UHGV virus genome: UHGV-1373625
Length of the DNA: 64,000 bases
Strand: one strand, 5' to 3'
Origin: a virus
Within the stretch, counting starts at the first letter, position 1. Every line of letters begins with the position of its first letter. The notes under the pieces were generated by a model. That model was not told the DNA's origin and searched no databases. It saw nothing but the letters and a program-made list of their open reading frames with translations. Below are positions 5,309-38,181 of the stretch, in pieces. The position numbers and the translations under genes are program-made.

Positions 5309-5776
5309 TTATTTTATTTTTACAAGCGTTCGAGTATGTAAACACTGAATATTATAACCACCTGCATAAATTACTTGAATTGTTACTGTTTTTTCTCCTT
5401 TATTAGTGCAGATCCTAAATACGCCTTCAAATCCATCTTTAGAAAAAACGTTTTTGCAAAAAGTAACGCTAGTTATATCTAAATCCGCCATTTTCTTTGA
5501 AATAATTCCGTTCCTTTTTTTGATCATTGCCTCATGATTTTTTATAACGATTTTTTCTATATATTCCATTGGATTATCAGAAAAAATACGAAACCACGTT
5601 TTTCCACCAAAACGTAAGAAAACCTCCTCCTCATTATAAGTTCTATACTCCTCCGTATTACGAAAGGCGTTAAATTCTGCCTTTTTTAAAAAAGCCCATT
5701 CGATATTGGACTTTAATATACCTTCATCAAATGCCGCCAAAATTTTATTTAACATGATAATCAAATCTGAGTTCAT
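5309..5776 (-). CDS. hypothetical protein
   Basis: 155-aa ORF with agagg RBS. Confidence 0.5.
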   Translation of the reverse strand: MNSDLIIMLNKILAAFDEGILKSNIEWAFLKKAEFNAFRNTEEYRTYNEEEVFLRFGGKTWFRIFSDNPMEYIEKIVIKNHEAMIKKRNGIISKKMADLDITSVTFCKNVFSKDGFEGVFRICTNKGEKTVTIQVIYAGGYNIQCLHTRTLVKIK

Positions 5777-5788
5777 ATATAACCTCTG

Positions 5789-6163
5789 CTACCCGAGATA
5801 TTCCATACAGACAACGGGATCTGTCTCAACCGTCTCGAATCCCTCACTAGCGTAAAAGTCAACAAGATCTTCAAGGCTCATGCCATCGAAATCAGGAACC
5901 GCCGCAATTTTCAAGGGAAGGTGCGGAAACTTCCTCTTTGCATAAGATATCGCGGCTCGGAGCAAGACTCTGCCGTGTCCCTTGCGACGATACTCAGGCC
6001 GTACATGAAGATCAGAAACAAGTACGATATCCTGTTCTTCATAGCCATATAATGCGCTAGGGGCATCAATAATCTCTACCTCTTGAGAAATCATGCAATG
6101 ACCATATTCCGACTCAAACACGATATCCCGGCCAGTATGCCCGGTCACAGTGATCTTACTCAT
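5789..6163 (-). CDS. GNAT-family N-acetyltransferase
   Basis: RRKGHGRVLLRAAISYA acetyl-CoA-binding motif; start placed at MSKITV, which has a ggaggg RBS. Confidence 0.7.
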   Translation of the reverse strand: MSKITVTGHTGRDIVFESEYGHCMISQEVEIIDAPSALYGYEEQDIVLVSDLHVRPEYRRKGHGRVLLRAAISYAKRKFPHLPLKIAAVPDFDGMSLEDLVDFYASEGFETVETDPVVCMEYLG

Positions 6164-6339
6164 AAAAATACCCTCCATGCGATTCGTTTAAAGAGACTCT
6201 ATGCAAATACTAAATCACTGTCAAGCGGATCTATGAAATAATCGAAAAGAAAAAATATTCGTGCACTCGCATATTATATAAGGTATTGCAAGTACTGTGC
6301 CACAATATCGGTATGGCTACTCTACGATGGTTCCGAGTC

Positions 6340-6460
6340 AATGACACCTAATGACACATAATGACATCTATTACACATGATGACACTTCTTTGACATCTG
6401 TTGACGGTCGTTGACAGTCTGTGACGCTTGTTGACGGCTATTTACGGTCGTTGACGACCG
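6340..6460. repeat. Helically phased array of about 12 TGAC(A/G) elements at 10-bp spacing (aaTGACAcnta x5, then tTGACggtcg-type x7); iteron-like
   Basis: TGAC at 6342, 6352, 6362, (6372 variant), 6381, 6392, 6402, 6412, 6422, 6432, (6442 variant), 6452. Confidence 0.85.
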
Positions 6461-6725
6461 TGCACGGGGATTTTCAACGATTGTTCAATAAATAACTATC
6501 AATACAATCAACTACTTACAACTTGGCATAAGTCTTGCATAGGTTGAGATTGGTTTGAGATTCTCCAATCATTTCAAGTATATGGGAGGGGGTAGGGTCA
6601 AAGTGTACCGCATTCCGGTATATAGTACCGTCGTTGACTCAAAAAAACATTTTTTTCGATTTCTGAGCTTTTATCCGGTTGTAATTATTCATGTAAATTT
6701 TTTAAACGAAATTTTAATAAAACTA

Positions 6726-6754
6726 TTGACAAAAAATCGTTTATGGATTAAGAT
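6726..6754 (+). promoter_or_regulatory. sigma70-like promoter TTGACA-17-TAAGAT upstream of terS
   Basis: -35 at 6726, 17-bp spacer, -10 at 6749. Confidence 0.4.
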
Positions 6755-6789
6755 TTTTACTAAATTTAACATAAAAAAGGAGAAAAACA

Positions 6790-7260
6790 TTGCGACGCCA
6801 AACAAAATCCATCGAAGCGCATAAGCAAGATGGTACATACAATTCTACGAAGCATGGAGTGGACGTTCCATTGGCGGAAGGACCGCTGAGGAAAATCAAT
6901 TGGGACAAGATGTCCTCGGAAGATATTTATAACACGATTGCTGATGTTATCGCACAGAAGGGCCTTGACCACGCTGAATACTCTCTGGCTTTGGAACTCC
7001 TAGTTTATGCGGTGAATAGGATGCTTAAACTCCGCAGGGATTTGAAAGCCCAAGGCGGCGAGACATATATTACGCCGTCAGGTATCAGGAAAAACAATCC
7101 TACTGCGAAACTTGTTATGGAAGCAGAAAAGCAAGTTGATACCCTTCTACAAAGATTTGGGCTCACGCCGGATTCTCGTAGCCGAGTAGCTAGGAAGAAG
7201 GGAGAACTTAATCTAGGGGGTGAAGATTCTTTCGGATCTCCGGAAGGTTTCTTCAATTAA
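6790..7260 (+). CDS. terS: Phage terminase small subunit, P27 family
   Basis: Motifs TPSGIRKNNPTAKL and FGLTPDSRSR are characteristic of P27-family TerS; TTG start with aaaaaggag RBS. Confidence 0.7.
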   Translation: MRRQTKSIEAHKQDGTYNSTKHGVDVPLAEGPLRKINWDKMSSEDIYNTIADVIAQKGLDHAEYSLALELLVYAVNRMLKLRRDLKAQGGETYITPSGIRKNNPTAKLVMEAEKQVDTLLQRFGLTPDSRSRVARKKGELNLGGEDSFGSPEGFFN

Positions 7261-7293
7261 ACCAATAATTTAAAAATATTTTAAAAAAAGTAG

Positions 7294-7321
7294 TTGACAA
7301 GTATAAAAATCTAAGTATAAT
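7294..7321 (+). promoter_or_regulatory. Near-consensus sigma70 promoter TTGACA-16-TATAAT driving the tRNA cluster
   Basis: ttgacaagtataaaaatctaagtataat. Confidence 0.55.
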
Positions 7322-7494
7322 CTATTTCAGTAAAAGGTGTTGTTGGCTACATGGAAAAGCTACGCTTTCGAGCGTTACCGTATGTTCGACTCATATGGGC
7401 ACCATCAAAAAGATAGACTCGTATTTCAATTGATGGAAAGTAAGTCTGTAACCGAGAAAATGCGGGCTTAAATCCTATCGAGTCTATCATTATG

Positions 7495-7571
7495 CGACCG
7501 TAACTCAATTGGCAAGAGTAGCCGACTTTTAATTGGCAAGTTATGGGTTCAAGCCCCATCGGTCGCACCAT
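7495..7571 (+). tRNA. tRNA-Lys (anticodon UUU)
   Basis: Manual fold: acceptor gcgaccg/cggtcgc, D-stem actc/gagt, anticodon stem gccga/ttggc with loop cTTTtaa, T-arm atggg-TTCAAGC-cccat, discriminator A, encoded CCA. Confidence 0.8.
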
Positions 7572-7596
7572 AAATCTGTAAAAAGGAGTTGCTAAA

Positions 7597-7863
7597 ATGG
7601 ATATTAACACCGATTTCTTTGAAAGAATGTTTTCTTGTGAAGGTTGGGATCAGCTTGACACTTTCGACTTTGTGTTTTATGATTGCACTTTGAATAGGGA
7701 TATTGGCAATTTTAAGGAAGGCGACAAGATTGACTCTATTTCCGTCCTTTTTAGCGTCAGCAAGATTGAATTTGCGACGTTCATTGAAAATAAGGATGGC
7801 ATGGATGAAGAAAAAATCATTTATTCCGCAACGCTTGTGCCCTTTATGGTCGAACGGCCTTAA
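7597..7863 (+). CDS. hypothetical protein (small acidic, within the tRNA cluster)
   Basis: 88-aa ORF with aaaaaggag RBS directly after tRNA-Lys. Confidence 0.45.
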   Translation: MDINTDFFERMFSCEGWDQLDTFDFVFYDCTLNRDIGNFKEGDKIDSISVLFSVSKIEFATFIENKDGMDEEKIIYSATLVPFMVERP

Positions 7864-7878
7864 ACAAAAGGATACGAA

Positions 7879-8145
7879 ATGATCATGCTGCATAAATACT
7901 TTGCTCAAATCATAAAGGATTATGAGAATTTCGATTTTTATAAATCTGACGATGGTATCTTTATGTTTTTCGGATGTACTATGGCCTCAGATATGCCTTT
8001 TTTAGATAAAGGGGATTATGTCGAGGAAGTAATCTTCGATTTTTCTGATGGAACTGTACGTATTACTGAAAAATGTGGAAGCCCAACTTATATTTGTGAA
8101 ATTAAACCTGAAATTATCTCGATAAGTATTAAAAGAAACTCTTGA
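7879..8145 (+). CDS. hypothetical protein
   Basis: 88-aa ORF with aaagga RBS. Confidence 0.4.
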   Translation: MIMLHKYFAQIIKDYENFDFYKSDDGIFMFFGCTMASDMPFLDKGDYVEEVIFDFSDGTVRITEKCGSPTYICEIKPEIISISIKRNS

Positions 8146-8170
8146 CAAACAGATAAAGATTGAGTATAAG
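8142..8170 (+). promoter_or_regulatory. sigma70-like promoter TTGACA-17-TATAAG
   Basis: cttgacaaacagataaagattgagtataag. Confidence 0.4.
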
Positions 8171-8412
8171 TATTTTATCAATTCATTCATATGTTTGCTC
8201 CTCGAATCGGGAGACGCAATTTCCTCCTTTATTGCGTCTCCCACAACAAAAATTTATAGAATATAAGAATTCATGCTGTTGGCTAAAGTATTTTCCGTCG
8301 CCAAAAAGAACGTATGAGACGGAAGTGCTTCGTAAGATCTTCAACGAGGTTTAAGCTAAGTAATTCGGGTTTCTTTAACTGAATGTAAACCTTAGCGTCC
8401 AACAGTTTTAAT

Positions 8413-8488
8413 GGACTCGTACTTCAATTGGCAGAAGATCCGGCTCATAACCGGGAAGTTATAGGTTCGAGTCCTATCGGGTCTACCA
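8413..8488 (+). tRNA. tRNA-Met (anticodon CAU; could be initiator or lysidine-modified Ile)
   Basis: Manual fold: acceptor ggactcg/cgggtct with two GU pairs, D-stem cttc/gaag, anticodon loop ctCATaa, T-arm atagg-TTCGAGT-cctat, CCA encoded. Confidence 0.75.
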
Positions 8489-8492
8489 TCAT

Positions 8493-8570
8493 ACTATCGT
8501 AGCCCAACAGGTAGAGGCAAGGGTCTTAAAAACCCTACAGTATTGGGTTCGAATCCCATCGGTAGTACCA
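8493..8570 (+). tRNA. tRNA with anticodon UAA (Leu by anticodon) but a short type-I variable arm
   Basis: Acceptor actatcg/cggtagt, anticodon stem agggt/accct with loop ctTAAaa, T-arm ttggg-TTCGAAT-cccat, discriminator A, CCA; the D-arm is weak. Confidence 0.5.
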
Positions 8571-8578
8571 AAAAATAT

Positions 8579-8655
8579 TGTGGGATAGTTCAGTTTGGCA
8601 GAACACTTGACTGTTAATCAAGGTGTCGGCGGTTCAATCCCGTCTCCCACAGCCA
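8579..8655 (+). tRNA. tRNA-Asn (anticodon GUU)
   Basis: Acceptor tgtggga/tcccaca, D-stem gttc/gaac, anticodon stem cttga/tcaag with loop ctGTTaa, T-arm ggcgg-TTCAATC-ccgtc, discriminator G, CCA. Confidence 0.8.
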
Positions 8656-8670
8656 GAAGAATTAAAAACA

Positions 8671-8760
8671 GGACAGGTGCCAGAGTCAGGCTTATTGGGG
8701 CGGTCTTGAAAACCGTTGGCGCAGGAGCGTCCGTGGGTTCGAATCCTACCTTGTCCGCCA
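8671..8760 (+). tRNA. tRNA-Ser (anticodon UGA), class II with a long variable arm
   Basis: Acceptor ggacagg/cttgtcc, anticodon loop ctTGAaa, variable stem ggcgc-agga-gcgtc, T-arm gtggg-TTCGAAT-cctac, discriminator G, CCA. Confidence 0.75.
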
Positions 8761-14716: not shown

Positions 14717-15288
14717 GATTCTTCCTCCATTTTTTGTTCGACCGCAATTCTTGCATGTTTAAGACGGCATTGCACGCATTTATATCTTAATTTGCCCATC
14801 TCTGTACAACCCTCACCGATTATTTCACATGGCAGCGAATCCAGTTCACCAGCTTTCGCAAGCCAAATAGCTACCCTAGCCTCAAATTCGGCTACATCTT
14901 GGCTAAATCCCGATAAAGTATACCGTTTTGGATTCATAGAATAATTTTGACCAACGCATTGTGCATAATAATAGAATCTATAAATACACTCGGTCTTTTT
15001 ATCCCTTCCGCACCTAAAACACACGTCTTTTCGGTTTTCCAACCACTGTTTTTCGCTATCTTTAAGTTGAAATCTATAGCTTTCTTTGTTGTATAGGTCT
15101 TTAATCGGAAATTTAGCGTCCCAATCAGCTTCGGCGGCTTCCTTGGTTTTGAAAAGATCCGACTTTTTATTACAGAAAACGCTATTGCAAGTCACATGCC
15201 ACATTTCATATGGGCCTACAAAAGAGTCAATTAGTACCTTCTTGGCAGTAGCGTCATTAGCACAGTGCGGACATTTTCTTGTGTTCAT
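14713..15288 (-). CDS. Lar-family (restriction alleviation)-like zinc-ribbon protein with a C-terminal extension
   Basis: Start at MNTRKCPHCANDA with aatgaggtg RBS; KCPHC...HVTCNSVFC...EAAEADWDA matches the Lar-like C-P-x-C / HV-C / EA..W pattern. Confidence 0.5.
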   Translation of the reverse strand: MNTRKCPHCANDATAKKVLIDSFVGPYEMWHVTCNSVFCNKKSDLFKTKEAAEADWDAKFPIKDLYNKESYRFQLKDSEKQWLENRKDVCFRCGRDKKTECIYRFYYYAQCVGQNYSMNPKRYTLSGFSQDVAEFEARVAIWLAKAGELDSLPCEIIGEGCTEMGKLRYKCVQCRLKHARIAVEQKMEEES

Positions 15289-15639: not shown

Positions 15640-16347
15640 CTATTCTCCAAGAAGAATCTTTTTGATCAACAGCACACCTTCTTTCGTAACCCCAATTTGA
15701 TTGTGAATCCCGTCAGTCGAGTATATCTTAAAATATTTCAATCCGGCGTTATTCACCTCAGTAAGTCTTTGATGGATGAACCCTTGAGATTTTGCCCATC
15801 GGGTAATTTGGCCTCGTTTCAATCCAAGAGATCGGTTTACGTCAGTGATTGAGAAGCATCCCTTCGTATCGATCCTCGTTTCAGCGATCTGAACTAGAGG
15901 CTTCTGAGCTTCGATGGTTTCAAGAGCCATCAATTTTGCCCGCTCTTCTATGCGACGCTGTTCTTCCTTATCTGCCCATGCTCGGGCAGCTTCAACAGGA
16001 TCATTGAAATTAGGAAGCGCGACAGCATGTTTAATCTGCTCTTCCATCTCGTTAAAACGAGCGATATATGCCTCTTTCACCTGCATAGCCTCTGGAGTGG
16101 TGTATCCCATCGTCACCATAAGCAAGCCGTCTTTTGTGAGCAGATACATCGGAAGATTTCTACCCGTACTATCTTTATACCCACTAAGCTGAAAGTTCAG
16201 CCCAGTAAATGACTCTGAGCACTTAGCTATTGTAACGCGAATATCCGCGAGTACATTCTTATGAGATTTACCAAAAGCCTCCGCGATTTGCAAGGATGTA
16301 ACAGAAGGTTTACCATTGACGATTTCAATCTTAACAGGATCATTCAT
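15640..16347 (-). CDS. Phage regulatory protein Rha (N-terminal domain) fused to a KilA-C-type antirepressor C-terminal domain
   Basis: N-terminal VTSLQIAEAFGKSHKNVLADIR is Rha-like; the C-terminal QKPLVQIAETRID..KIYSTDG is near-identical to 11082 and 22692. Confidence 0.7.
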   Translation of the reverse strand: MNDPVKIEIVNGKPSVTSLQIAEAFGKSHKNVLADIRVTIAKCSESFTGLNFQLSGYKDSTGRNLPMYLLTKDGLLMVTMGYTTPEAMQVKEAYIARFNEMEEQIKHAVALPNFNDPVEAARAWADKEEQRRIEERAKLMALETIEAQKPLVQIAETRIDTKGCFSITDVNRSLGLKRGQITRWAKSQGFIHQRLTEVNNAGLKYFKIYSTDGIHNQIGVTKEGVLLIKKILLGE

Positions 16348-16448: not shown

Positions 16449-16507
16449 GGAATATCCCCGAAGGAATATCCCCGAAGGAATATCCCCGAAGGAATATCCG
16501 GGTATCC
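16449..16507. repeat. Tandem repeat of ggaatatccccgaa (14 bp) x3 followed by ggaatatccgggtatcc
   Basis: Three perfect units at 16449-16490; the last unit restores the ccggatattc palindrome half. Confidence 0.85.
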
Positions 16508-17227: not shown

Positions 17228-17289
17228 CGAATATTTACTCCTGTGTAACATTTTATACTGTGTAGGTTTTTTGATTATCCGATGTGTGT

Positions 17290-18470
17290 AGCAGAAGAGT
17301 CGAAGGAAGTCAAGGATGGAGTGTGATTGAAGGTGTGTGTGTGGGATCAGTTGGGGCCTGTGATCATTATGTGGTGTGATCAGAACGAAGGTTATAAACT
17401 CTTGAAATTTTTATTTAAAAAAATTCAACTGATCACAACTGATCACATTTTTCGGAAAAAGATAAACCATATTAATAAGTTGCAATTTTGTGATCAGTTG
17501 GCACAGCTCAGGGGTGTCCCAAAGTTTCTTTATATGTGATCTATGGGGGAGGGGTATAGTGTTGCATATATGCAACATGGAAAGAGAGGAACATTTTTTC
17601 TTACATAGACTTTCTATTTATACTGATCACATGATCACAAAATAAAAATATAGATATAAGTAATTGAAATAATAAAATAAAAAATGTGATCAGTTTGTGA
17701 TCAGTTAAACCGTTTGTGATCACTTCAACCGATCACACTTCTGTTAAAATCCCATTTTTTGAAGCTTCCCTCCCAATCTGTGGGAAAGCTAAAAACTTAA
17801 AGTGTAACTCTAAGAATTTCTTTGTAGTTGAAATAACTAGACTTTTTATTTAAGGTTTAACTTGTAAAGTTTCCGTTTAAAACTCTTTTAAAAGCCGGAA
17901 TTTATTATCGACCGATTTAATTGACATTTTTATTTTGGGTTTCTTTTAGTTTTAATTCGGAAAGTTTTCTGTCTAAAAGAAACTTTAAGAAAGATTATAA
18001 GCTCCGAATGTCCCATTTTGGGCATTATGTAAACTTTTGGAGTTCCATTTTCTTTTCTTTTCCGTTTAAAACTCTTTTAAAGGCCGAAATTTCTTTGTAG
18101 TTGAAATAACTCAATTTTTTATTTTGGGTTTATTTTGTAAACTTTACGGTTTAAAACTCTTTTAATTTCTTTTAAAAGCCTAAATTTCTTATCGACCGAT
18201 TTAATTGACTTTTTTATTTTCCAATTTAAACTCTTTTAACTCAGAAAGTTTCCGAATTAAAACTAAAAGAAACCAAAAATAAAAATGTCAATTATTTCCG
18301 AGAGAAAGAAATTCCGGCTTTTAAAAGAGTTTTAAACGGAAACTTTCTGAGTTAAAAGGAATTGGATCACCTTTTAAACGGATCAAAAGACGAAAAGAAG
18401 ATCCGAATCTCCTTTGCCGATCTGTCGGGCTCCGAGATTCGGATCTTCTTTTCGTCCGAGTTTCTGTTTT
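17290..18470. repeat. Origin-like non-coding region: at least 13 TGTGATCA(G) GATC-containing iterons, an 18-bp palindrome TGTTGCATATATGCAACA, about 100-bp inverted repeats, AT-rich direct repeats and a terminal hairpin
   Basis: About 1.2 kb without credible ORFs; iterons at 17343-17740; inverted repeats at about 17870-17990 and 18243-18342; 22-bp hairpin at 18385-18460 with T-tract acting as terminator for the primase gene. Confidence 0.6.
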
Positions 18471-18479
18471 AGGTTTGGA

Positions 18480-21069
18480 TTAATCCATATTCAATTCTTC
18501 AAATTCAGTTTTTGGGATATTAAGATACTCGCAGAATAATTCGACGCATTTTTCTTTGGAGGGAAAATCCCAGACTCTCATCCTATCAGTCCTGTCCGAA
18601 ACGGTGATAACTTTTCGGTGGGAATCATCCAGACTAAAGATTCTCTTTGTTTCAATCCTGAATTTTTTAAGAGACACAATGTTGTAAGAGCTTGCGCGAG
18701 TCCTAACCATCTTCTGTGTGAACTTATCATGAGCATCAGTCATCGACAAGTAAGTGGGCCAGTTTCTATTTTCTGAATTTTCAAATAGCTTCGAGGTTCT
18801 TTCATCTTCAATTTCTGCCCGAGGATATACTCCATCAGAAATGACATCATACCACCATTGCTGTACGCTATTCAAAGAAAGGAGTTTCTGTTCCATGAGA
18901 GCCTTCGTTTGGGGAGCCTCTCGGATATTCACTCCGCTAAAGTCATAATGTTTCAGATAGACATAAAGGGCTTCGTCACCGCCATTTTTAAATTCCTCAT
19001 TAAGATCTTTGAAGTATCCTTGAGTGTCCTGCTTATGCTTTGAGGACACATCCAGAACAAAGAATCTGCGGGCGTCCTTACCTGCGGGGATAACCCAGTC
19101 CTCGTTAGAAGACATGATGAACCGGGAACAGGAATGCACAGAGTATGATTCGAAGCCTTTCCTTTCGATCACCTGAGTACGCTCCGTGATCTGTGACTTG
19201 AGAATGCTTTCGTCCTGTTTGCTTCCGGCCCAGACAGCTTCGTCGAGATAGATAAGGACTTTCCCTTCGGTGGCTCCGTTGAAGTTAGAGAAGTAATGCT
19301 GCCTATTCGCTACGGAGAGGCCGTGCTTGCCCAACATACTCATGAACGGAGAGACGAAAGAACCTTTACCAGTACCTTCCTCGCCACGAAGCACAACGGC
19401 TACGCCGGGCTTATCCTCCGGCTTTTGAATCATGTGCGCAAGCCAAGCCCACATATACCGTTGGTGATCTTCATTACCATCACAGATTACTTCATTGACG
19501 TGGCTCCTAAACAACTTGCAGCGTTCAGTGGCCTCGGCAATTCCCATCTCCGAGTTTGCATATTTAAACCCGCGCCAGAGATTGTAGTACCCCTTGGGAG
19601 CCCCCTGCGGAGCAAATTCCACCCCACGATATTGACGGCGGTTCTTGCTTTCCATCCATGCTTTGAAGAGGGGTTTTTGCTTCACGTTCCCTTTTGCATC
19701 AAGAAACTCGAATGCGGGAAGGTTTGCGGAGAACTCTTCGGCGGCCCTAGGAGTAAGGAATTTGGATTCCCCGTCAGGATCTTCGTAAATGATTGCCGAT
19801 TTCCCTCCGATAAAAGTAAAAGCGAAAAGACCATTCATTTTCTTGATCAGAGGATGCACGTAGTCCTGATCGGAATCTTCTTCCTTTTCGGCATTTTTAA
19901 CAATATCGGATGAGGAATCCTCCGAATTTCCGAAAGGATTATCCTCTACACTGGTCGGGGATTCCTTGTTCTCGGTTTTAGGGTCTTCTGTTCCATAGTC
20001 TTTCATAATCATCTCAAACATGCGTTCGGCATAGATTGGGCAGCTTCCACAGACCCTCGAACGCTCTTTACCCAGAATTGTGATCATCGCTCCGCAGCCA
20101 AAATCGCATGGGGATTTTTCATCAGTATCCCACACGCTTTCAAGATGGTGCGTCCTGTCCATAGCTGACGTGTATCCTTGAGACTCTTCAAAATTTTCAA
20201 GGAAGTCGACTACGAGAGGGTGGTTAATGGCTTCCGACTTTGTAAATCCCGCCGACCTGAGCGCGGGGACAATGGCAGAGAAGCACATCTGATTGAACGA
20301 ATAATCTCCAGCTTTCTTTGTAAGTCCAAGAATCGCCTTTAGGCAAGGAACGATTTCCTTGTCCTTAATATTAAGCGGGGCTTGCTTCCTTTCCGAGCGG
20401 GCTTTGATGGCTCCTACGACATTCGCTTCACATCTACGGAAAAGATCGCTCAGATAATCAATTCTAGCGGGTTTCTTCGCTTGTTCGTCAGGTTGAGGCG
20501 ATAGGGCTTTACTCTGGAAATACTCAATAGTATTATTGATAAGCTCATCCGCGCTAATACGGATTTTGTATCTGCCATTGGAACGAAGCCTATTCGCAAT
20601 TCGGAACATCTTTCCACGTTTCATAGCGAACATGGAATAGTCGAGAGTCTTATAGCCTTCCTCGCTAGGGAAAAGTTCAAGGCACACTTCTTTGTAAATC
20701 CAAGGAAGAACGCGATGTCCATTTTCCGCGCCAAAAGCCTCCGCAGGAACGACGATATGAAAACCCTTCTGTCCCGAATAATATATTCTAAGAGACTCCG
20801 AATCTAGTCCCAAGAGAACCAATTTATTCAAAGCATTTACTGTATCAATGCGGCTCTCCTCAGCATCTTTTGAATCGAAATCGAGAGTCAAATCCCCATA
20901 TCGTACTACAGCCAAATTAAGGATATCCTTATTTTCATCCTTATAATTGGGCTCCGTTTCAAAAGACATTGACGTAGAGAACATGGCGATATTCGGCACT
21001 TTGTCGATTTTACAAATCTTCCAAGCGCTTTCCCTTTCTTCAACTTTCCAATATACAAAGCGTTGCATA
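18480..21069 (-). CDS. Bifunctional primase-polymerase (PrimPol/AEP) fused to a D5/P4-type SF3 helicase
   Basis: N-terminal YYSGQKGFHIVVP is AEP motif; C-terminal VVLRGEEGTGKGSF Walker A and the downstream region are typical of P4/D5 primase-helicase; start at MQRF with gagggg RBS. Confidence 0.75.
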
Positions 21070-32271: not shown

Positions 32272-33633
32272 ATGATGAAATCCGTAATTGACTTTGAAAC
32301 AAGATCCCCTGTAGATATTAAAACTTGCGGAGCTTACGCATATGCTGCGCACCCTGATACTGAGGTGATGATGCTTGCCGTCCGTATATGTGGACAGGAG
32401 GCTCGCGTATGGGTAGCTCCGGCATATAGGCATTTTCTTGATACTGAATTGAGTGACGATGAATTGCAGGATATTATTAATAATTGTGAAGAGATTGCAG
32501 CACATAACGCCCCTTTCGAAAGAGCCATTTGGAAATTCAAGATGGAGCCTCTCTGGTTTAAGCCATTGCCATTAGAGAAAATTCGATGCACGATGTCTCA
32601 GGCCCTTATGTGCAACCTCCCCCGTAAACTGGAACAAGCGGTAAAGGTTTGGCGAAAAGACGCCCCTCAGAAGGATAATGAAGGGCATAAGCTGATGATG
32701 AAAATGTCAAAGCCTAGGAAGTTCCGTAAAGCCGAGCTTTCCGCGTTTCCTGATCCCGAAAAGGCTAAGGCTACTCAAGAATACGTCTATGCTGTACTTT
32801 CAAAAGGTGGCATTCCTACCATTAAAAACTACCATCAATATATTGTCTATCCTTGCGACGAGCCAATGTTTAAACGATATGTTGAATATTGTCGACAGGA
32901 CGTGGTTGCGGAAGAAGTTCTTTTTACGGAGCTTCCTCCTATCCCTGAGCGGGAGCTTAAAGTGTGGCGGCTTGACCAGACAATCAATGACCGTGGAGTA
33001 GGAATTGACAGGTTTCATGCGGTCAAAATTATGGATATGGTTAATAAAGTAGAAGATATTTTGACGGAGGAAGCTTCTGAGATTACGTATGGGGCGGTAT
33101 CGACTATGAAGTCTTCTAAGGCTATTATTGAATGGCTACAATCTCGTGGGGTTGATACTGATTCGGCAAGCAAGCAAGCTATCTCCGACCTTCTTGAACG
33201 GACTGATCTCCCCTCTGATGTTCGTAGATTCCTTGAGATTCGCCAGACTATTGCCATGTCTTCTACGGCAAAATATCAGACCATGCTCTGTACTTCATGC
33301 TATGATGGCAGGGCGCATGGAACGATGATTTATCATGGCGCTTCAACTGGAAGGTTTTGTCTTTCGGAAGGGTCTATGGTCAAAGTTTGTGATGATGCAG
33401 GTTGTGTTTATGAAAAGCCTATCGAAAATGTTGACAGATCAGAAAAAGTATGGGATGGTTCGGATTGGGTCTATCACGATGGTGTAGTTTTTTCAGGAGA
33501 TAAACCCGTTATTGAATGGGATGGGATTGTTGCTACAGAAGAACATAAAGTTTTTATTTCAGATACAGAAAAAATGTCTCTTTTAGAAGCCAAGGAAAGA
33601 GAACTTAAACTCTGGCAAGGAGAGAAACCCTAA
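32272..33633 (+). CDS. Family-A DNA polymerase, N-terminal half (3'-5' exonuclease plus start of the polymerase domain) ending in a split-intein N-fragment
   Basis: IDFETRS Exo I motif; ...IYHGASTGRF then CLSEGSMVKV...TEEHKVF...ERELKL (91 aa) resembles DnaE-type N-inteins; stop TAA overlaps the next ATG (TAATG). Confidence 0.8.
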   Translation: MMKSVIDFETRSPVDIKTCGAYAYAAHPDTEVMMLAVRICGQEARVWVAPAYRHFLDTELSDDELQDIINNCEEIAAHNAPFERAIWKFKMEPLWFKPLPLEKIRCTMSQALMCNLPRKLEQAVKVWRKDAPQKDNEGHKLMMKMSKPRKFRKAELSAFPDPEKAKATQEYVYAVLSKGGIPTIKNYHQYIVYPCDEPMFKRYVEYCRQDVVAEEVLFTELPPIPERELKVWRLDQTINDRGVGIDRFHAVKIMDMVNKVEDILTEEASEITYGAVSTMKSSKAIIEWLQSRGVDTDSASKQAISDLLERTDLPSDVRRFLEIRQTIAMSSTAKYQTMLCTSCYDGRAHGTMIYHGASTGRFCLSEGSMVKVCDDAGCVYEKPIENVDRSEKVWDGSDWVYHDGVVFSGDKPVIEWDGIVATEEHKVFISDTEKMSLLEAKERELKLWQGEKP

Positions 33634-35549
33634 TGCGTACTTATGACATACTTAATGCTGGCCCTAAAAATAGATTTATGGCGAATGGTAAAATCGTAAG
33701 TAATTCAGGTGCTCTTATTCAACCGCAAAATTTGACTAGACCTTCAACAAATAATATGAATATCCCCGAAGGTTCCAAGCCTTTGGATAATTATGATATC
33801 AGTGAAATGGATATCGAACTTGCAGCTAGCGGGAATTTAGATCTTATCCAGCAGTATTGGAAAGACCCTAAAGTCCTTGCCTCCGATTGCCTTCGCGCAA
33901 TGATTCACGCTAGAAAAGGATACGATTTTATCTGTGCCGACTATAGTGGGATTGAAGCCCGAGCATTGGCATGTCTCGCTGGCGAAGAGTATGTTCTTCA
34001 AGGTTTTAGGGACGGCCTTGACCCATATAAAGTTGCAGCTACGACTATCTATGGGGTGAAATATGAAGATGTGGATAAGAAGCAGCGTCAAGTAGGTAAG
34101 ACGGCTACGTTGGCTTGCTTCTCTGCGGATACAATGGTTTATACGAGCTATGGAATAAAAAAAATCGTCGACATAACTAAAGATGATTATGTATGGGATG
34201 GAGAAAACTGGTGTTTGACAGATGGAGCATATTGCCAAGGTATTAAAGAAATCGTTAATTTTTTGGGAGTAGAATCTACACCTGATCAAAAATGGTTGAT
34301 GGATGAAAATATTTGGATAGACTCCGATGCAGCTATTGAATTGTGTAAATGGCTAGGAGATGGGAAAGTTTATTCTAGCGAGCAATATCAAATATTCTCT
34401 AGTTGGGTTAGTTATCAAATCTCAAAAGTTCAAGATAAAATTATTTATAGTTTGAAGAAATACCCAGTAAAAGTAACTATAGCTGAAATGGGAATTGAAG
34501 TAATTCTTTCCGATTTTGACGAAGATGACTTTAATGTATCCTTTGTTGATTCTAAAAGTAGAAAAGGTGTTTATGTATACTTGGGTGAAAGCTTAAGGAA
34601 CACGAGTCTTGAAGATAAAGTTAAATATGTATGCTCCATTATCGTCTTTTTAGCTACGATTTTTTCTAAGTATTCAACAGCTCAAAATTATCTGAATATT
34701 AAAGTGAGTGAAGCCGTTATTAAGGACTATAATAAAATAAATATGGCGATTTTAAAGTTTATCAAAAAAGATGATAGCGATGAAATTATTCTTACTGGGA
34801 GCATTTTATCTAATAGAGATGGTTATACTAAAATAGAAAAAGTTTATGATCTTTTGAATTGTGGAGATAAAAGCAGGTTTATGATACATACATCCTGCGG
34901 TCCACGCATTGTGCATAACTGTGGATATGGAGGTGGTTATGGCGCGTTCCTTCGCTTTGGGGCTGATAGAATGGGCATTGATGAAGAGGAAGGAAAGAAG
35001 ATTATTGCTGCATGGAGAGACGGGCACCCAATGACGGTTAAGCTTTGGCACAAACTCGTTGAAGCTGCTGTCATGGCTATGACGAATAAGGGCGGAATTT
35101 ATTCTTATCGTGGAGTATCATTCCAATACTATAAGAGATTCCTCCTTATGAAGCTCCCTAGTGGCAGGTTCCTCTTCTACTTCGAGCCTAAACTTGAAGA
35201 CGTGGAGATGGCATGGTCTACGCCAGAAAAGCCAGCGTTCAAGAAGCTTGTTACGGCGATGACCTTGACGCCAGAAAAACAATTTGTGAGAAGGCCGCTT
35301 AACCATCTCATACTTTCAGAAAATGTTACACAAGCTTTCTGTAGAGATCTGATGGTGAATGCGATGTTCAATCTCGAAGAAGCCAATTATCCGGTAGTGT
35401 TTCATGTTCATGATGAAATCATTGCGGAAGTTCCTAAAGGGTTTGGGTCTGTCGAGGAATTTGAAAATATCATGTGCAAGCTTCCTCAATGGGCAGAAGG
35501 TCTGCCAGTAAAGGCCGAAGGATGGAGGGGAGAATTTTATAGGAAATAA
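33633..35549 (+). CDS. Family-A DNA polymerase, C-terminal half: 24-aa split-intein C-fragment, then palm/fingers (motifs A, B, C), interrupted by a second, contiguous 268-aa intein
   Basis: MRTYDILNAGPKNRFMANGKIVSN|S matches intein blocks F/G; extein motifs QPQNLTRP, CADYSGIEARALA (A), RQVGKTATLA-[intein]-CGYGGGYG (B), HVHDEI (C). Confidence 0.8.
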   Translation: MRTYDILNAGPKNRFMANGKIVSNSGALIQPQNLTRPSTNNMNIPEGSKPLDNYDISEMDIELAASGNLDLIQQYWKDPKVLASDCLRAMIHARKGYDFICADYSGIEARALACLAGEEYVLQGFRDGLDPYKVAATTIYGVKYEDVDKKQRQVGKTATLACFSADTMVYTSYGIKKIVDITKDDYVWDGENWCLTDGAYCQGIKEIVNFLGVESTPDQKWLMDENIWIDSDAAIELCKWLGDGKVYSSEQYQIFSSWVSYQISKVQDKIIYSLKKYPVKVTIAEMGIEVILSDFDEDDFNVSFVDSKSRKGVYVYLGESLRNTSLEDKVKYVCSIIVFLATIFSKYSTAQNYLNIKVSEAVIKDYNKINMAILKFIKKDDSDEIILTGSILSNRDGYTKIEKVYDLLNCGDKSRFMIHTSCGPRIVHNCGYGGGYGAFLRFGADRMGIDEEEGKKIIAAWRDGHPMTVKLWHKLVEAAVMAMTNKGGIYSYRGVSFQYYKRFLLMKLPSGRFLFYFEPKLEDVEMAWSTPEKPAFKKLVTAMTLTPEKQFVRRPLNHLILSENVTQAFCRDLMVNAMFNLEEANYPVVFHVHDEIIAEVPKGFGSVEEFENIMCKLPQWAEGLPVKAEGWRGEFYRK

Positions 35550-35638: not shown

Positions 35639-36760
35639 ATGTTTGAAGTAAAAGGATCAGTAAGTACAGCTAAGGTTTTCACAGATTATGTGGAGCCGAC
35701 CGCGTTATCTCAGATTATTGAATTATGTAATCAGGAGTTCACCGAAGGAAGTAAAATCCGTATTATGCCTGATGTACATGCTGGTGCTGGATGCGTTATT
35801 GGAACGACGATGACCATTGAAAATAAGAAAATCGTTCCTAATCTTGTCGGTGTTGATATCGGTTGTGGGCTACTGTCCTGTGAATTTACTTTGGGGGATA
35901 AGCTCAACAATAGCTTTTTTGAAGAAGTTGATCGAATTATTCGAAAGTATATTCCCGCAGGATTTAATATTCGTAACGACAAGCATGAATTGGTTAGCGC
36001 CATCAATTTGAATACGCTTGCATGTTGTAATGAAGTTAATATCGCTCGTGCGGAGCACAGTATTGGGACTTTGGGGGGAGGGAATCATTTTATTGAAATA
36101 GGGGAATCCGATAATTTCGATGGTACTTTTTCTTATTTCCTTACCGTACATTCTGGTTCTAGAAATATTGGAAAAGAAGTAGCTACTTATTATCAAAATG
36201 TCGCTATTAAGGAATGTCCGGGCACCCCCAAACATCTAGCGTATCTTTCAGGGGAGATGTTCGATGAATATATGTATGATATGGAAATCATGAAATATTA
36301 TGCCTCTTTGAATCGTGAGGCGATCATTAACGATATCACGCTACACATTGGGATTAAGAAAGACGATGTCTATGAAACCGTTCATAACTATATAGAACGT
36401 ATTGACAATGATGTGTTCATGCTGCGCAAGGGAGCCGTTTCCGCTAAAAAAGAACAGGCTCTTATGATCCCTTTGAATATGAGAGACGGTATTATTTTTG
36501 GTTTTGGTAAAGGACTTGAAGACTGGAACTATTCCGCACCTCATGGAGCTGGACGTAGACTAAGCAGAGGTGAAGCCAAGCGCAGCCTTGATATGAATGA
36601 TTTTAAAAATGAAATGGAAGGTATTTATTCTTCTTGCGTAAATATTTCTACTCTTGATGAAAGTCCTATGGCATACAAGGATGGCTCAGAGATTCGTAAT
36701 AATCTTCAATCGGTGGAAACCTTGTTTACTATTAAGCCAGTATATAACTTTAAAGCATAA
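35639..36760 (+). CDS. rtcB: RtcB-family RNA 3'-phosphate ligase
   Basis: MPDVHAGAGCVIGTT (RtcB PDxHxGxG metal site) and the general RtcB layout; 373 aa. Confidence 0.7.
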   Translation: MFEVKGSVSTAKVFTDYVEPTALSQIIELCNQEFTEGSKIRIMPDVHAGAGCVIGTTMTIENKKIVPNLVGVDIGCGLLSCEFTLGDKLNNSFFEEVDRIIRKYIPAGFNIRNDKHELVSAINLNTLACCNEVNIARAEHSIGTLGGGNHFIEIGESDNFDGTFSYFLTVHSGSRNIGKEVATYYQNVAIKECPGTPKHLAYLSGEMFDEYMYDMEIMKYYASLNREAIINDITLHIGIKKDDVYETVHNYIERIDNDVFMLRKGAVSAKKEQALMIPLNMRDGIIFGFGKGLEDWNYSAPHGAGRRLSRGEAKRSLDMNDFKNEMEGIYSSCVNISTLDESPMAYKDGSEIRNNLQSVETLFTIKPVYNFKA

Positions 36761-37425: not shown

Positions 37426-38181
37426 ATGTATGGATATGTTTATTGTACAACAAATTTAATAACGGGTTGTATGTATATAGGTAGACACGCATCTAGTGTA
37501 TTCGATGAAAAGTATTTTGGCTCGGGAAAGATACTAAAACGAGCTATAAAAAAATATGGAGAGAATAATTTTTCTATAGAGATACTTTGCGAAGCGGAGT
37601 CTTATGAAGATTTAGCTGAGAAAGAACGATATTATATAGCATTATCAGATGCGGTAAACCGTAAAGATTTTTATAATATAGGCAGGGGAGGAGAGGGGTT
37701 CCCTTCTGGAGAAAATCACCCAAATTATGGTAAAAAAGGCAAGGACGCTTTTGGGTGGGGGAAAGTGCATACTGATAAATTTAAAGAATATATGTCGAGA
37801 ATACGAAAAGGTATGAAGTTTTCTTTTGACCATAAGCAAAAATTATCTCAAAAGAAATTAGGGGATGCTACATTAAATAAAGGAAGGCGTGTATCAGAAG
37901 ATACAAAGGCCAAATTATCTCAAATAAACAAAGATGCTCAATTAAATAGGAAAATGGGTATTAAGCAAAATGGTAGAATAAGGACTTTTCATGAGTTCTT
38001 ACACGGCTTTAAAGTTGCTATTTATTTTACAGATGGGTCGATTAAGACTTTTGATAGCATGAAAGCCTGTACGAGATACACTTCATTGAAACATAGGGTG
38101 CGCCACATAAATACTATAAAAAGGATTATTAATGGAGAGACATTACCTCCAGAAGGGGTGAGAAAAATATGCTATATTTAA
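37426..38181 (+). CDS. GIY-YIG homing endonuclease with NUMOD-type DNA-binding repeats
   Basis: GYVYCTTNLITGCMYIGRHA (GIY-YIG), catalytic R..E region, repeated K/H-rich NUMOD3-like motifs. Confidence 0.7.
   Translation: MYGYVYCTTNLITGCMYIGRHASSVFDEKYFGSGKILKRAIKKYGENNFSIEILCEAESYEDLAEKERYYIALSDAVNRKDFYNIGRGGEGFPSGENHPNYGKKGKDAFGWGKVHTDKFKEYMSRIRKGMKFSFDHKQKLSQKKLGDATLNKGRRVSEDTKAKLSQINKDAQLNRKMGIKQNGRIRTFHEFLHGFKVAIYFTDGSIKTFDSMKACTRYTSLKHRVRHINTIKRIINGETLPPEGVRKICYI

Follow-up and report, generated by a model that had tools for sequence, protein, structure and literature searches.

A ten-base-pair TGAC repeat array beside the cohesive ends of an uncultured human-gut phage: an apparently optional accessory module

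The intergenic region in front of the gene for the small terminase subunit (terS) in the virus genome UHGV-1373625 carries an array of TGAC repeats, which was studied here in a stretch of 64,000 nucleotides (the window) and in related contigs. The phage has a genome of about 90 kb with cohesive (cos) ends and is known from human-gut metagenomes. The first-pass annotation of the window considered the array a strong candidate for a pac site recognized by the small terminase subunit protein, TerS. The genome ends and the natural variants of the region, taken together, argue that the array is neither the cleavage site nor a required TerS recognition site. Judged from sequence comparisons, it appears to be a dispensable, optional accessory module that occupies a single locus beside cos. 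Its role can be named only tentatively. It may be an accessory architectural or activator-binding element of the two divergent sigma54-type promoters that flank it, which is preferred narrowly over the possibility that the array is an accessory platform for the terminase.

The cut was located from the ends of assemblies. At least nine assemblies from several sources start at 6638-6640 and define the left end; those that begin at window position 6638 (CTCAAAAAAACATTTTTTTCG) are L003, L008, L009, L027-L030 and L176, from IMG/VR, ENA, Logan and JGI. The Logan contig L026 has at positions 1-24 an Illumina adapter tail, TCCCTACACGACGCTCTTCCGATC, fused to TCAAAAAAAC at the left end. This marks a physical end, since such a junction assembles only if many fragments share one end. 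The final CT of the adapter is the same as the native CT at 6638-6639, and because of this match 6638 is the exact point at which the assembly graphs branch. The top strand thus has its 5' end at 6639 or 6640. For the right end, the IMG/VR contig 3300045988_141352 (90,083 bp) starts at 6638 and stops in ...GGTATATAGTAC, which corresponds to window position 6628 and lies about 170 bp past its own TGAC array. An 82.9-kb ENA scaffold provides a second right end at 6623. On the circular map the ends are adjacent with 9-11 bases missing, without repeat or overlap (the right end being taken from two assemblies), and this rules out both headful packaging and terminal repeats. A genome with direct terminal repeats was considered and rejected, as the ends of the 90-kb contig are adjacent and are not repeats of each other. 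Missing bases rather than an overlap fit 3' overhangs that are removed at end repair, and we infer a cos site with a 10-11-nt overhang, CGTCGTTGAC(T), that was lost in library preparation and is probably of 3' polarity.

The first-pass annotation was right that the packaging site lies in this intergenic region, but the cut at about 6629-6639 is 160 bp beyond the array. The array neither contains nor abuts it, as the ends fall at 6628 and 6638-6640, past the last unit by that distance, and no contig ends inside the array. The mapping of termini which that annotation had advised, done here from assembly ends, yields cos ends outside the array and a unit-length genome with two defined ends, and so the proposed pac site and the headful mode that goes with it were given up. 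The array lies 160-290 bp inside the right end, while terS is on the opposite side of the cut, 150 bp from the left end. Nor is the array immediately upstream of terS as had been described, since about 330 bp separate its last unit from the start of terS at 6790, an interval in which an AT-rich segment comes first, then a sigma54-like promoter element, then cos and then a sigma70-like promoter. With these results the genome ends of a widespread uncultured human-gut phage are fixed, so its genome can be oriented.

The terminase genes agree with a cos system of the HNH/HK97 type at 6629-6680. TerS, the large subunit (TerL) and an HNH endonuclease are all encoded, and two defined ends are found with a short cohesive gap. 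The assignment of terS was upheld by a match to Pfam Terminase_4 (E 2.4e-13). It is followed not by terL but by five tRNA genes, Lys-UUU, Met, Leu-UAA, Asn and Ser-UGA (window 6790-8760), and the genes for TerL (711 aa) and the HNH protein (123 aa) are located 14-16 kb left of the right end (L171:14148-16031), on the other side of cos. The arrangement shares several features with the cos sites of HK97 and the 936-type phages. The ends are defined and separated by a gap of about 10-11 nt, terS is close to the left end and an A-tract comes immediately after the cut; genes for HNH and TerL and short direct repeats around cos are further points in common. Unlike in those phages, terS lies away from terL with the tRNA genes behind it, and the array is far longer, phased, placed 160 bp off across the cut and apparently dispensable. 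The TerS proteins also differ. HK97 gp1 is not a member of Terminase_4 and could not be aligned to this TerS.

The sequence next to the cut on the terS side is a better candidate for TerS binding than the array. The 150 bp from cos to terS open with an A7/T7 tract. In all close relatives, with TerS at 97-99% identity, this segment is 100% identical, including in those that differ to the left of 6621, and a lineage with a TerS of only 87% identity still has the A-tract and TTTCGATTTC. HK97 TerS is the only cos TerS solved with DNA, and its one binding site, a 15-bp A-tract, occupies +15 to +29 downstream of the cut, the basic N-terminal arm of the protein lying in the minor groove (PMC11331095). 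Its ring has nine subunits and the HK97 3' overhang is 10 nt (PMC11331095). TerS of this phage begins with a basic arm (MRRQTK...) followed by an HKQDGTYNxTKH motif that is conserved in homologues of 28% identity. An AlphaFold2 model from a three-sequence alignment has the basic N-terminal arm and helices at low confidence (predicted local distance difference test, pLDDT, 64.8), and at that confidence no helix-turn-helix domain could be assigned. Foldseek found no significant match of the model in the PDB, and sequence searches against solved structures gave no match. Wider alignment-based searches, which covered viral, metagenome and genome collections, added nothing outside this phage group but two distant TerS genes at contig starts. 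By analogy with HK97, the A7/T7-tract region is the likelier TerS-binding site (cosB).

The TGAC repeat described in the first-pass annotation is present. Its cores start at 6342, 6352, 6362, 6371 and 6381 in sub-array A, the last two being shifted by -1, and at 6392, 6402, 6412, 6422, 6432, 6442 and 6452 in sub-array B. The number of twelve units was confirmed, as was the division into two sub-families (AATGACAC-type at 6340-6389, GTTGACGGTC-type at 6390-6459), but the statement that all are TGAC at exact 10-bp phasing was not. Ten of the twelve cores are exact TGAC and two are TTAC (6371 and 6442), and the core spacings are 10, 10, 9, 10, 11 and then six times 10, a -1 slip in phase that is made good two units further on. 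The degenerate 13th unit has GCAC at 6462. Unit by unit, 6340-6469 is AATGACACCT AATGACACAT AATGACATCT ATTACACATG ATGACACTTC TTTGACATCT GTTGACGGTC GTTGACAGTC TGTGACGCTT GTTGACGGCT ATTTACGGTC GTTGACGACC GTGCACGGGG. The pattern TGAC-N6-TGAC-N6-TGAC occurs four times in the window, each time within the array, where 0.01 occurrences are expected, and Tandem Repeats Finder reports periods of 10 and 20. All units have the same orientation, and the strand on which they lie has its 3' terminus at the right end of the genome, close by. Apart from one incidental TGT-N12-ACA motif (6399-6416) they are direct repeats. It was also considered whether the array is a cluster of real sigma70 promoters, and this was ruled out by a promoter scan of 5900-7600 that found no promoter-like site within the array. 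The predicted curvature of 6390-6460 is in the top 0.1% of the window (end-to-end ratio 0.785 versus a window mean of 0.963) and that of the region is highest in sub-array B; the estimate comes from a wedge model with approximate parameters, and any exact 10-bp periodic sequence scores high on this measure.

Conservation was assessed in ten distinct array variants from related contigs, which together have 110 units. The A and the C of the core are kept in 100% of the units, the T in 96% and the G in 86%, and the base 3' of the core is a purine in 92%, which gives T(G/T)AC-purine as the invariant form. The flanking bases of the units vary freely. Phase is maintained across the variants, and the array has evolved by duplication of blocks of 20-30 bp in which the core is always retained. 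Array length ranges from 9 to 20 units and none is shorter than 9. This pattern suggests that core, phase and minimum length are under selection. In most variants a constant 72 bp separates the rightward sigma54-type element from the last core.

Two relatives lack the array. L025 and array-bearing variants have the same TerS (100% identity). Two bases of the overhang differ in the cos of L025, and L022, which has an array, shares this cos variant. The 220 bp of array and AT-rich spacer are exchanged in L025 for unrelated DNA that brings two extra sigma54-type elements, and the slot has four of them, one being an inverted copy of the rightward element, perfect over 21 bp. The second relative, L168, has a TerS that is 87% identical and the same cos core, but its sequence, which extends 175 bp upstream of cos, contains no array. 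Spacer and rightward sigma54-type element are missing along with it, and the leftward promoter-like element stands alone, 85 bp from cos. In general the spacer is gained and lost jointly with the array. It follows from both relatives that the array is not a necessary companion of TerS. In some strains a second, unrelated 10-bp array, CATCGGGAGR mixed with GGCTTCCAGA, lies just upstream of the leftward sigma70-like promoter and about 100 bp from the TGAC array slot. It has 1, 3 or at least 16 units depending on the strain and is clearly hypervariable, and contigs break within it. Together with the two array-less relatives, it suggests that the slot between the promoters behaves like a place where promoter modules are exchanged.

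The array is situated in a 610-bp divergent intergenic region that extends from a GNAT gene to terS. The leftward sigma54-type element reads into the operon of the GNAT and other small proteins, and the rightward one reads across cos toward terS. Rightward transcription would cross cos and is thus possible only on circular or concatemeric DNA. Each of these elements is backed by a sigma70-like promoter nearer its gene. To our knowledge, sigma54-type promoters are unusual in a phage. Three exact elements were found in the window where 0.06 are expected, the third (15186-15201, minus strand) being inside a gene. The two that flank the array are conserved in relatives, with TGG and TTGCA kept and the spacer free, except that the rightward one is absent in L168. 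Both match the Clostridiales consensus TTGGCATN5TTGCT (PMC6615313). No host was identified for this phage among GTDB genomes.

With this location in mind, an accessory role in the control of the two promoters is put forward as a tentative possibility. An oligomeric protein would bind cooperatively to one face of the intrinsically curved array DNA, and the 100-130 bp or so upstream of both promoters would be bent or wrapped. Transcription could thereby be tuned in both directions, to the left for the small-gene operon and to the right for terS and the tRNA genes, which would be reached across the re-sealed cos. Curvature and protein binding are both inferred here. The array extends from -83 to -210 relative to the predicted rightward start and from -64 to -191 relative to the leftward start. 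Upstream activator sites of sigma54 promoters in Clostridiales are found at 100-250 bp (PMC6615313), a range that the array overlaps, and -24/-12 promoters are present. In Gram-positive phages, by comparison with the arrangement here, there is a further parallel in the form of the late-gene activators. Repeat arrays upstream of terS are bound by activators of the Alt and RinA types in such phages. Like sigma54 enhancers and the Alt/RinA arrays, the TGAC array is 60-210 bp upstream of promoter elements and offers several sites on one face, and like the activator arrays it accompanies a promoter whose transcripts would cross the packaging site into terS. It differs from the activator systems in that no activator gene was found, the repeats are direct and not inverted, and terS does not head a structural operon. 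An improbable variant is an enhancer that borrows a host sigma54 activator for the expression of terS and the tRNA genes across the re-sealed cos.

Several observations weigh against this promoter role. No enhancer-binding protein with a GAFTGA motif was found in the window or in the related flanks fetched, which together cover all but about 10 kb of the genome, and a phage-encoded sigma54 activator was rejected on this ground. No candidate for an array-binding protein came up, the small proteins nearby having no matches to DNA-binding domains. Both sigma54-type promoters are present without the array in L025, as is the leftward one in L168, so that it is strictly necessary for neither. The repeats of known sigma54 activator sites are inverted (PMC6615313), and the 12 of the array are direct. 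The extended units (GTTGACGG, AATGACAC) are found in the array and nowhere else in the window, although a general regulator usually has further sites. The cos overhang is a 12/13 copy of an array unit, which points to the terminase. Finally, possession of sigma54 by the host is assumed.

The terminase is the subject of the closest rival, a weakened form of the first-pass proposal, which is also possible if slightly more doubtful. TerS or another terminase component would bind the TGAC cores on the right-end side of cos, and a platform of at least nine units would wrap about one ring's worth of DNA and assemble or slow the motor at cos, which would be helpful and not essential. The array is only 160 bp from cos and terS is the nearest gene for a sequence-specific DNA-binding protein. 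The 13-mer TACGGTCGTTGAC occurs three times in the window with at most one mismatch, two of these being in the array and one exactly at the cos nick (TACCGTCGTTGAC); when all array 13-mers are considered, four near-matches are found elsewhere in the window and one of them is on cos (probability about 1e-3). The minimum of nine units equals the ring size of HK97 TerS and would suit one turn around a nonamer, the array DNA is predicted to be strongly curved, and in 936-type lactococcal phages direct repeats and putative terminase sites flank the 11-nt cos, with AATCT as the direct repeat and R1-R4 as the putative sites (PMC6105707). Against binding by the terminase stand the identical TerS of L025 and the 87%-identical TerS of L168, both without an array. 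There is also no covariation, as L007 has an array without a cos-like unit and the cos variant of L022, CATGGAC, is not mirrored in its array. The array is across the cut from terS, and the conserved A-tract is on the terS side, where HK97 TerS binds its single site. The TerS model has no confident helix-turn-helix, though its confidence is low. A stronger form of this proposal, in which the array is a positioning sequence for a nucleosome-like wrap around a TerS nonamer and the cos nick site is itself made of two more units, is improbable; the array would be an optional booster of cos recognition or of packaging termination. Wrapping and threading models of TerS were both considered unsupported in a 2022 review, and nucleosome-like wrapping has no biochemical support (PMC9611059). 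Of the cooperative wrapping suggested in the first-pass annotation, the part that stands is that an invariant core, phasing on one face and at least nine units fit an oligomer; the part that does not is its use as a pac site. Known packaging sites offer a partial precedent. Repeated TerS sites and bent DNA near the cut occur at SPP1 pacL/pacR and at the R sites of lambda cosB, and SPP1 pacL is on the side of the cut opposite terS. Those systems have 2-3 sites without a strict 10-bp lattice and need them for efficient cleavage, whereas the array has 9-20 units and is optional. How small terminases read DNA is unsettled, and in the sole solved complex, that of HK97, TerS contacts one site only. 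A clean test of TerS wrapping is offered by natural variants that have the same TerS and differ in whether the array is present. If it is true that TerS binds the array, wrapping would be revived as an accessory mode; if TerS does not bind, the array would mark a DNA-binding factor that acts on one face or a control element of curved DNA.

The remaining rivals place the array outside both transcription and packaging. It is unlikely that the array is a secondary replication origin, at which the TGAC iterons would bind an initiator and the AT-rich segment would unwind with the help of negative supercoiling between the divergent promoters. The idea draws on a scan of IMG/VR, where more than 120 loci were found to have five TGAC cores spaced by 10 bp. 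Of those with diverse units ((C/T)GTGAC, variable flanks), most are in or beside replication-initiator genes, and five of six proteins tested that overlap such arrays match O-like, DnaD-like or replisome-organiser PHROG families. At L060 an array and then an AT-rich stretch lie directly upstream of an apparent replisome-organiser gene (judged from its N-terminal sequence), and here too the phased repeats are followed by an AT-rich spacer with inverted core copies. Phage origin iterons of these families resemble the array in their imperfect 10-bp-phased repeats, (G/T)TGAC-like core, free flanks and AT-rich stretch. Unlike them, the array has no initiator nearby, has the core T/A-TGAC-R in place of C/T-GTGAC and is absent in two lineages. 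No open reading frame (ORF) of the window resembles the initiators of such arrays, the neighbours being the GNAT gene and terS. A stronger candidate, at 17250-18480, is a non-coding stretch of 1.2 kb next to the primase-helicase gene; it has about 12 TGTGATCA-type repeats (each with GATC), AT-rich blocks and longer repeats and is likely the main replication origin. The replisome, moreover, appears T7-like, with a Gp2.5-like single-strand binding protein, a family A polymerase and a primase-helicase, and origins in T7-like replisome systems are typically promoter-driven and not iteron-driven. Less likely still are other cis roles, that is, a parC-type centromere, a decoy or protective site for a host factor (Chi-like, AddAB) or a minisatellite without function. 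The decoy or protective version places the array at the genome end that enters the cell first, which is probably the right end. The single locus, variable copy number and dispensability of the array are in keeping with such roles, as are the single orientation of its units on the strand ending 3' at the right end and the second hypervariable 10-bp array 100 bp away in some strains. In parC of plasmid R1 a promoter is flanked by two sets of five phased iterons, direct repeats that wrap an adaptor protein, and the SRL/SRR arrays of T7 are short repeats next to the terminal repeats without defined function. Like SRL/SRR, the array has about 12 short regular repeats near a genome end and inward-facing promoters, but this phage has cos in place of direct terminal repeats, and it has no parM/parR-like genes as R1 has. 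The partition site that the first-pass annotation had offered as an alternative was not borne out, as no ParA, ParM, TubZ or adaptor gene and no nucleoside triphosphatase or adaptor domain was found among the proteins scanned. A Chi-like orientation bias of TGAC was looked for and not seen, the motif occurring outside the array 204 times on the plus strand and 167 times on the minus strand without marked bias or enrichment. The invariant core, variable flanks and floor of nine units speak against neutrality.

Among the loci returned by the IMG/VR scan, the array of L103 lies upstream of an apparent HNH, TerL and portal module (judged from sequence and sizes). The features of the region are collected in Table 1.

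Table 1. Features of the TGAC array region (window positions unless a contig is named)
Feature	Position	Strand	Description
CATCGGGAGR array	L169:1-160, L180:1-110, L025:2505-2535		
GNAT acetyltransferase	5789..6163	-	first gene of leftward operon; 124-aa form as in public gene calls
sigma70-like promoter, leftward operon	6196..6224	-	TTGACA, 17-nt spacer, TAGAGT; conserved in alignment
leftward sigma54-type -24/-12	6287..6302	-	TGGCACAGTACTTGCA; predicted start near 6276
TGAC array	6340-6459	+	12 units, 10 bp apart with one compensated 9/11 slip
sub-array A	6340..6389	+	five 10-bp units, AATGACAC type
sub-array B	6390..6469	+	seven 10-bp units, (G)TTGAC(G/A)GTC type (GTTGACGGTC), and degenerate 13th unit GTGCACGGGG
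AT-rich spacer	6470..6523	.	four inverted core-like copies (TCAAC/TCAAT) and 14-bp imperfect repeat
rightward sigma54-type -24/-12	6524..6539	+	TGGCATAAGTCTTGCA; predicted start near 6550
G-rich block	6584..6597	+	GGGAGGGGGTAGGG; between rightward sigma54-type element and cos
cos cohesive end	6629..6639	+	CGTCGTTGAC(T); ends mapped from assemblies
A7/T7-tract region (candidate cosB)	6640..6680	+	CAAAAAAACATTTTTTTCGATTTCTGAG...; 100% conserved in close relatives (TerS 97-99% identical)
sigma70-like promoter, terS	6726..6754	+	TTGACA, 17-nt spacer, TAAGAT
terS	6790..7260	+	P27-family small terminase, 156 aa

Some further observations concern the surroundings of cos. The G-rich block GGGAGGGGGTAGGG is conserved and is retained even in the lineages without the array. 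A strong Shine-Dalgarno-like block, GGGAGGGGG, precedes cos (window 6584-6665). In L022 and L168 it is followed by a start codon and an ORF of 21-31 codons that runs across cos, and in the window strain this frame has no start codon. No significant single-strand fold was found in the cos region, and no Rfam family in 6100-7400. The untrimmed adapter in L026:1-24 is a marker of a physical end, yet it is also a contaminant in a public Logan assembly. In the IMG/VR contig 3300045988_145664 the left cos end is fused at 6639 to about 1.1 kb of unrelated DNA rich in GC (L006:1-1109). This was considered as a prophage attachment site, which was set aside after the adapter fusion in L026 was seen, and the join is probably a chimeric assembly at a physical end and not a prophage junction. 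Matches to the cos-flank pattern in L015 and L016 were dismissed as chance, these contigs being unrelated.

The small proteins of the leftward operon have no family matches and no matches to DNA-binding domains. Elsewhere the window encodes portal, protease and major capsid proteins, a split family A polymerase, a primase-helicase, a Dda-like helicase, a Gp2.5-like single-strand binding protein, RtcB and NrdD/NrdG. Among GenBank phages there was no match for 5700-7400 by blastn or for TerS by tblastn, and the portal protein is less than 40% identical to that of any GenBank phage. By these comparisons the phage appears to have no cultured relative. Two other tandem repeats were noted in the window. 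The first is a perfect 16-bp repeat, CTCAAGCTGTACCGTG x3.4, at the window start (1-55). The other is a perfect 14-bp repeat, GGAATATCCCCGAA x3.6, at 16449-16499, upstream of a gene for a Rha/Ant-like regulator (15640-16347, minus strand), and possibly serves as an operator. The family A DNA polymerase is encoded in two ORFs (32272-35549 and 37426-38181) with endonuclease-like matches, and a separate homing-endonuclease gene is nearby. An RtcB RNA ligase is encoded at 35639-36760 and a protein with a cREC_REC domain outside the window (L170:14383-14805). Together with the tRNA cluster, these two proteins suggest a countermeasure to host defences that cleave tRNA.

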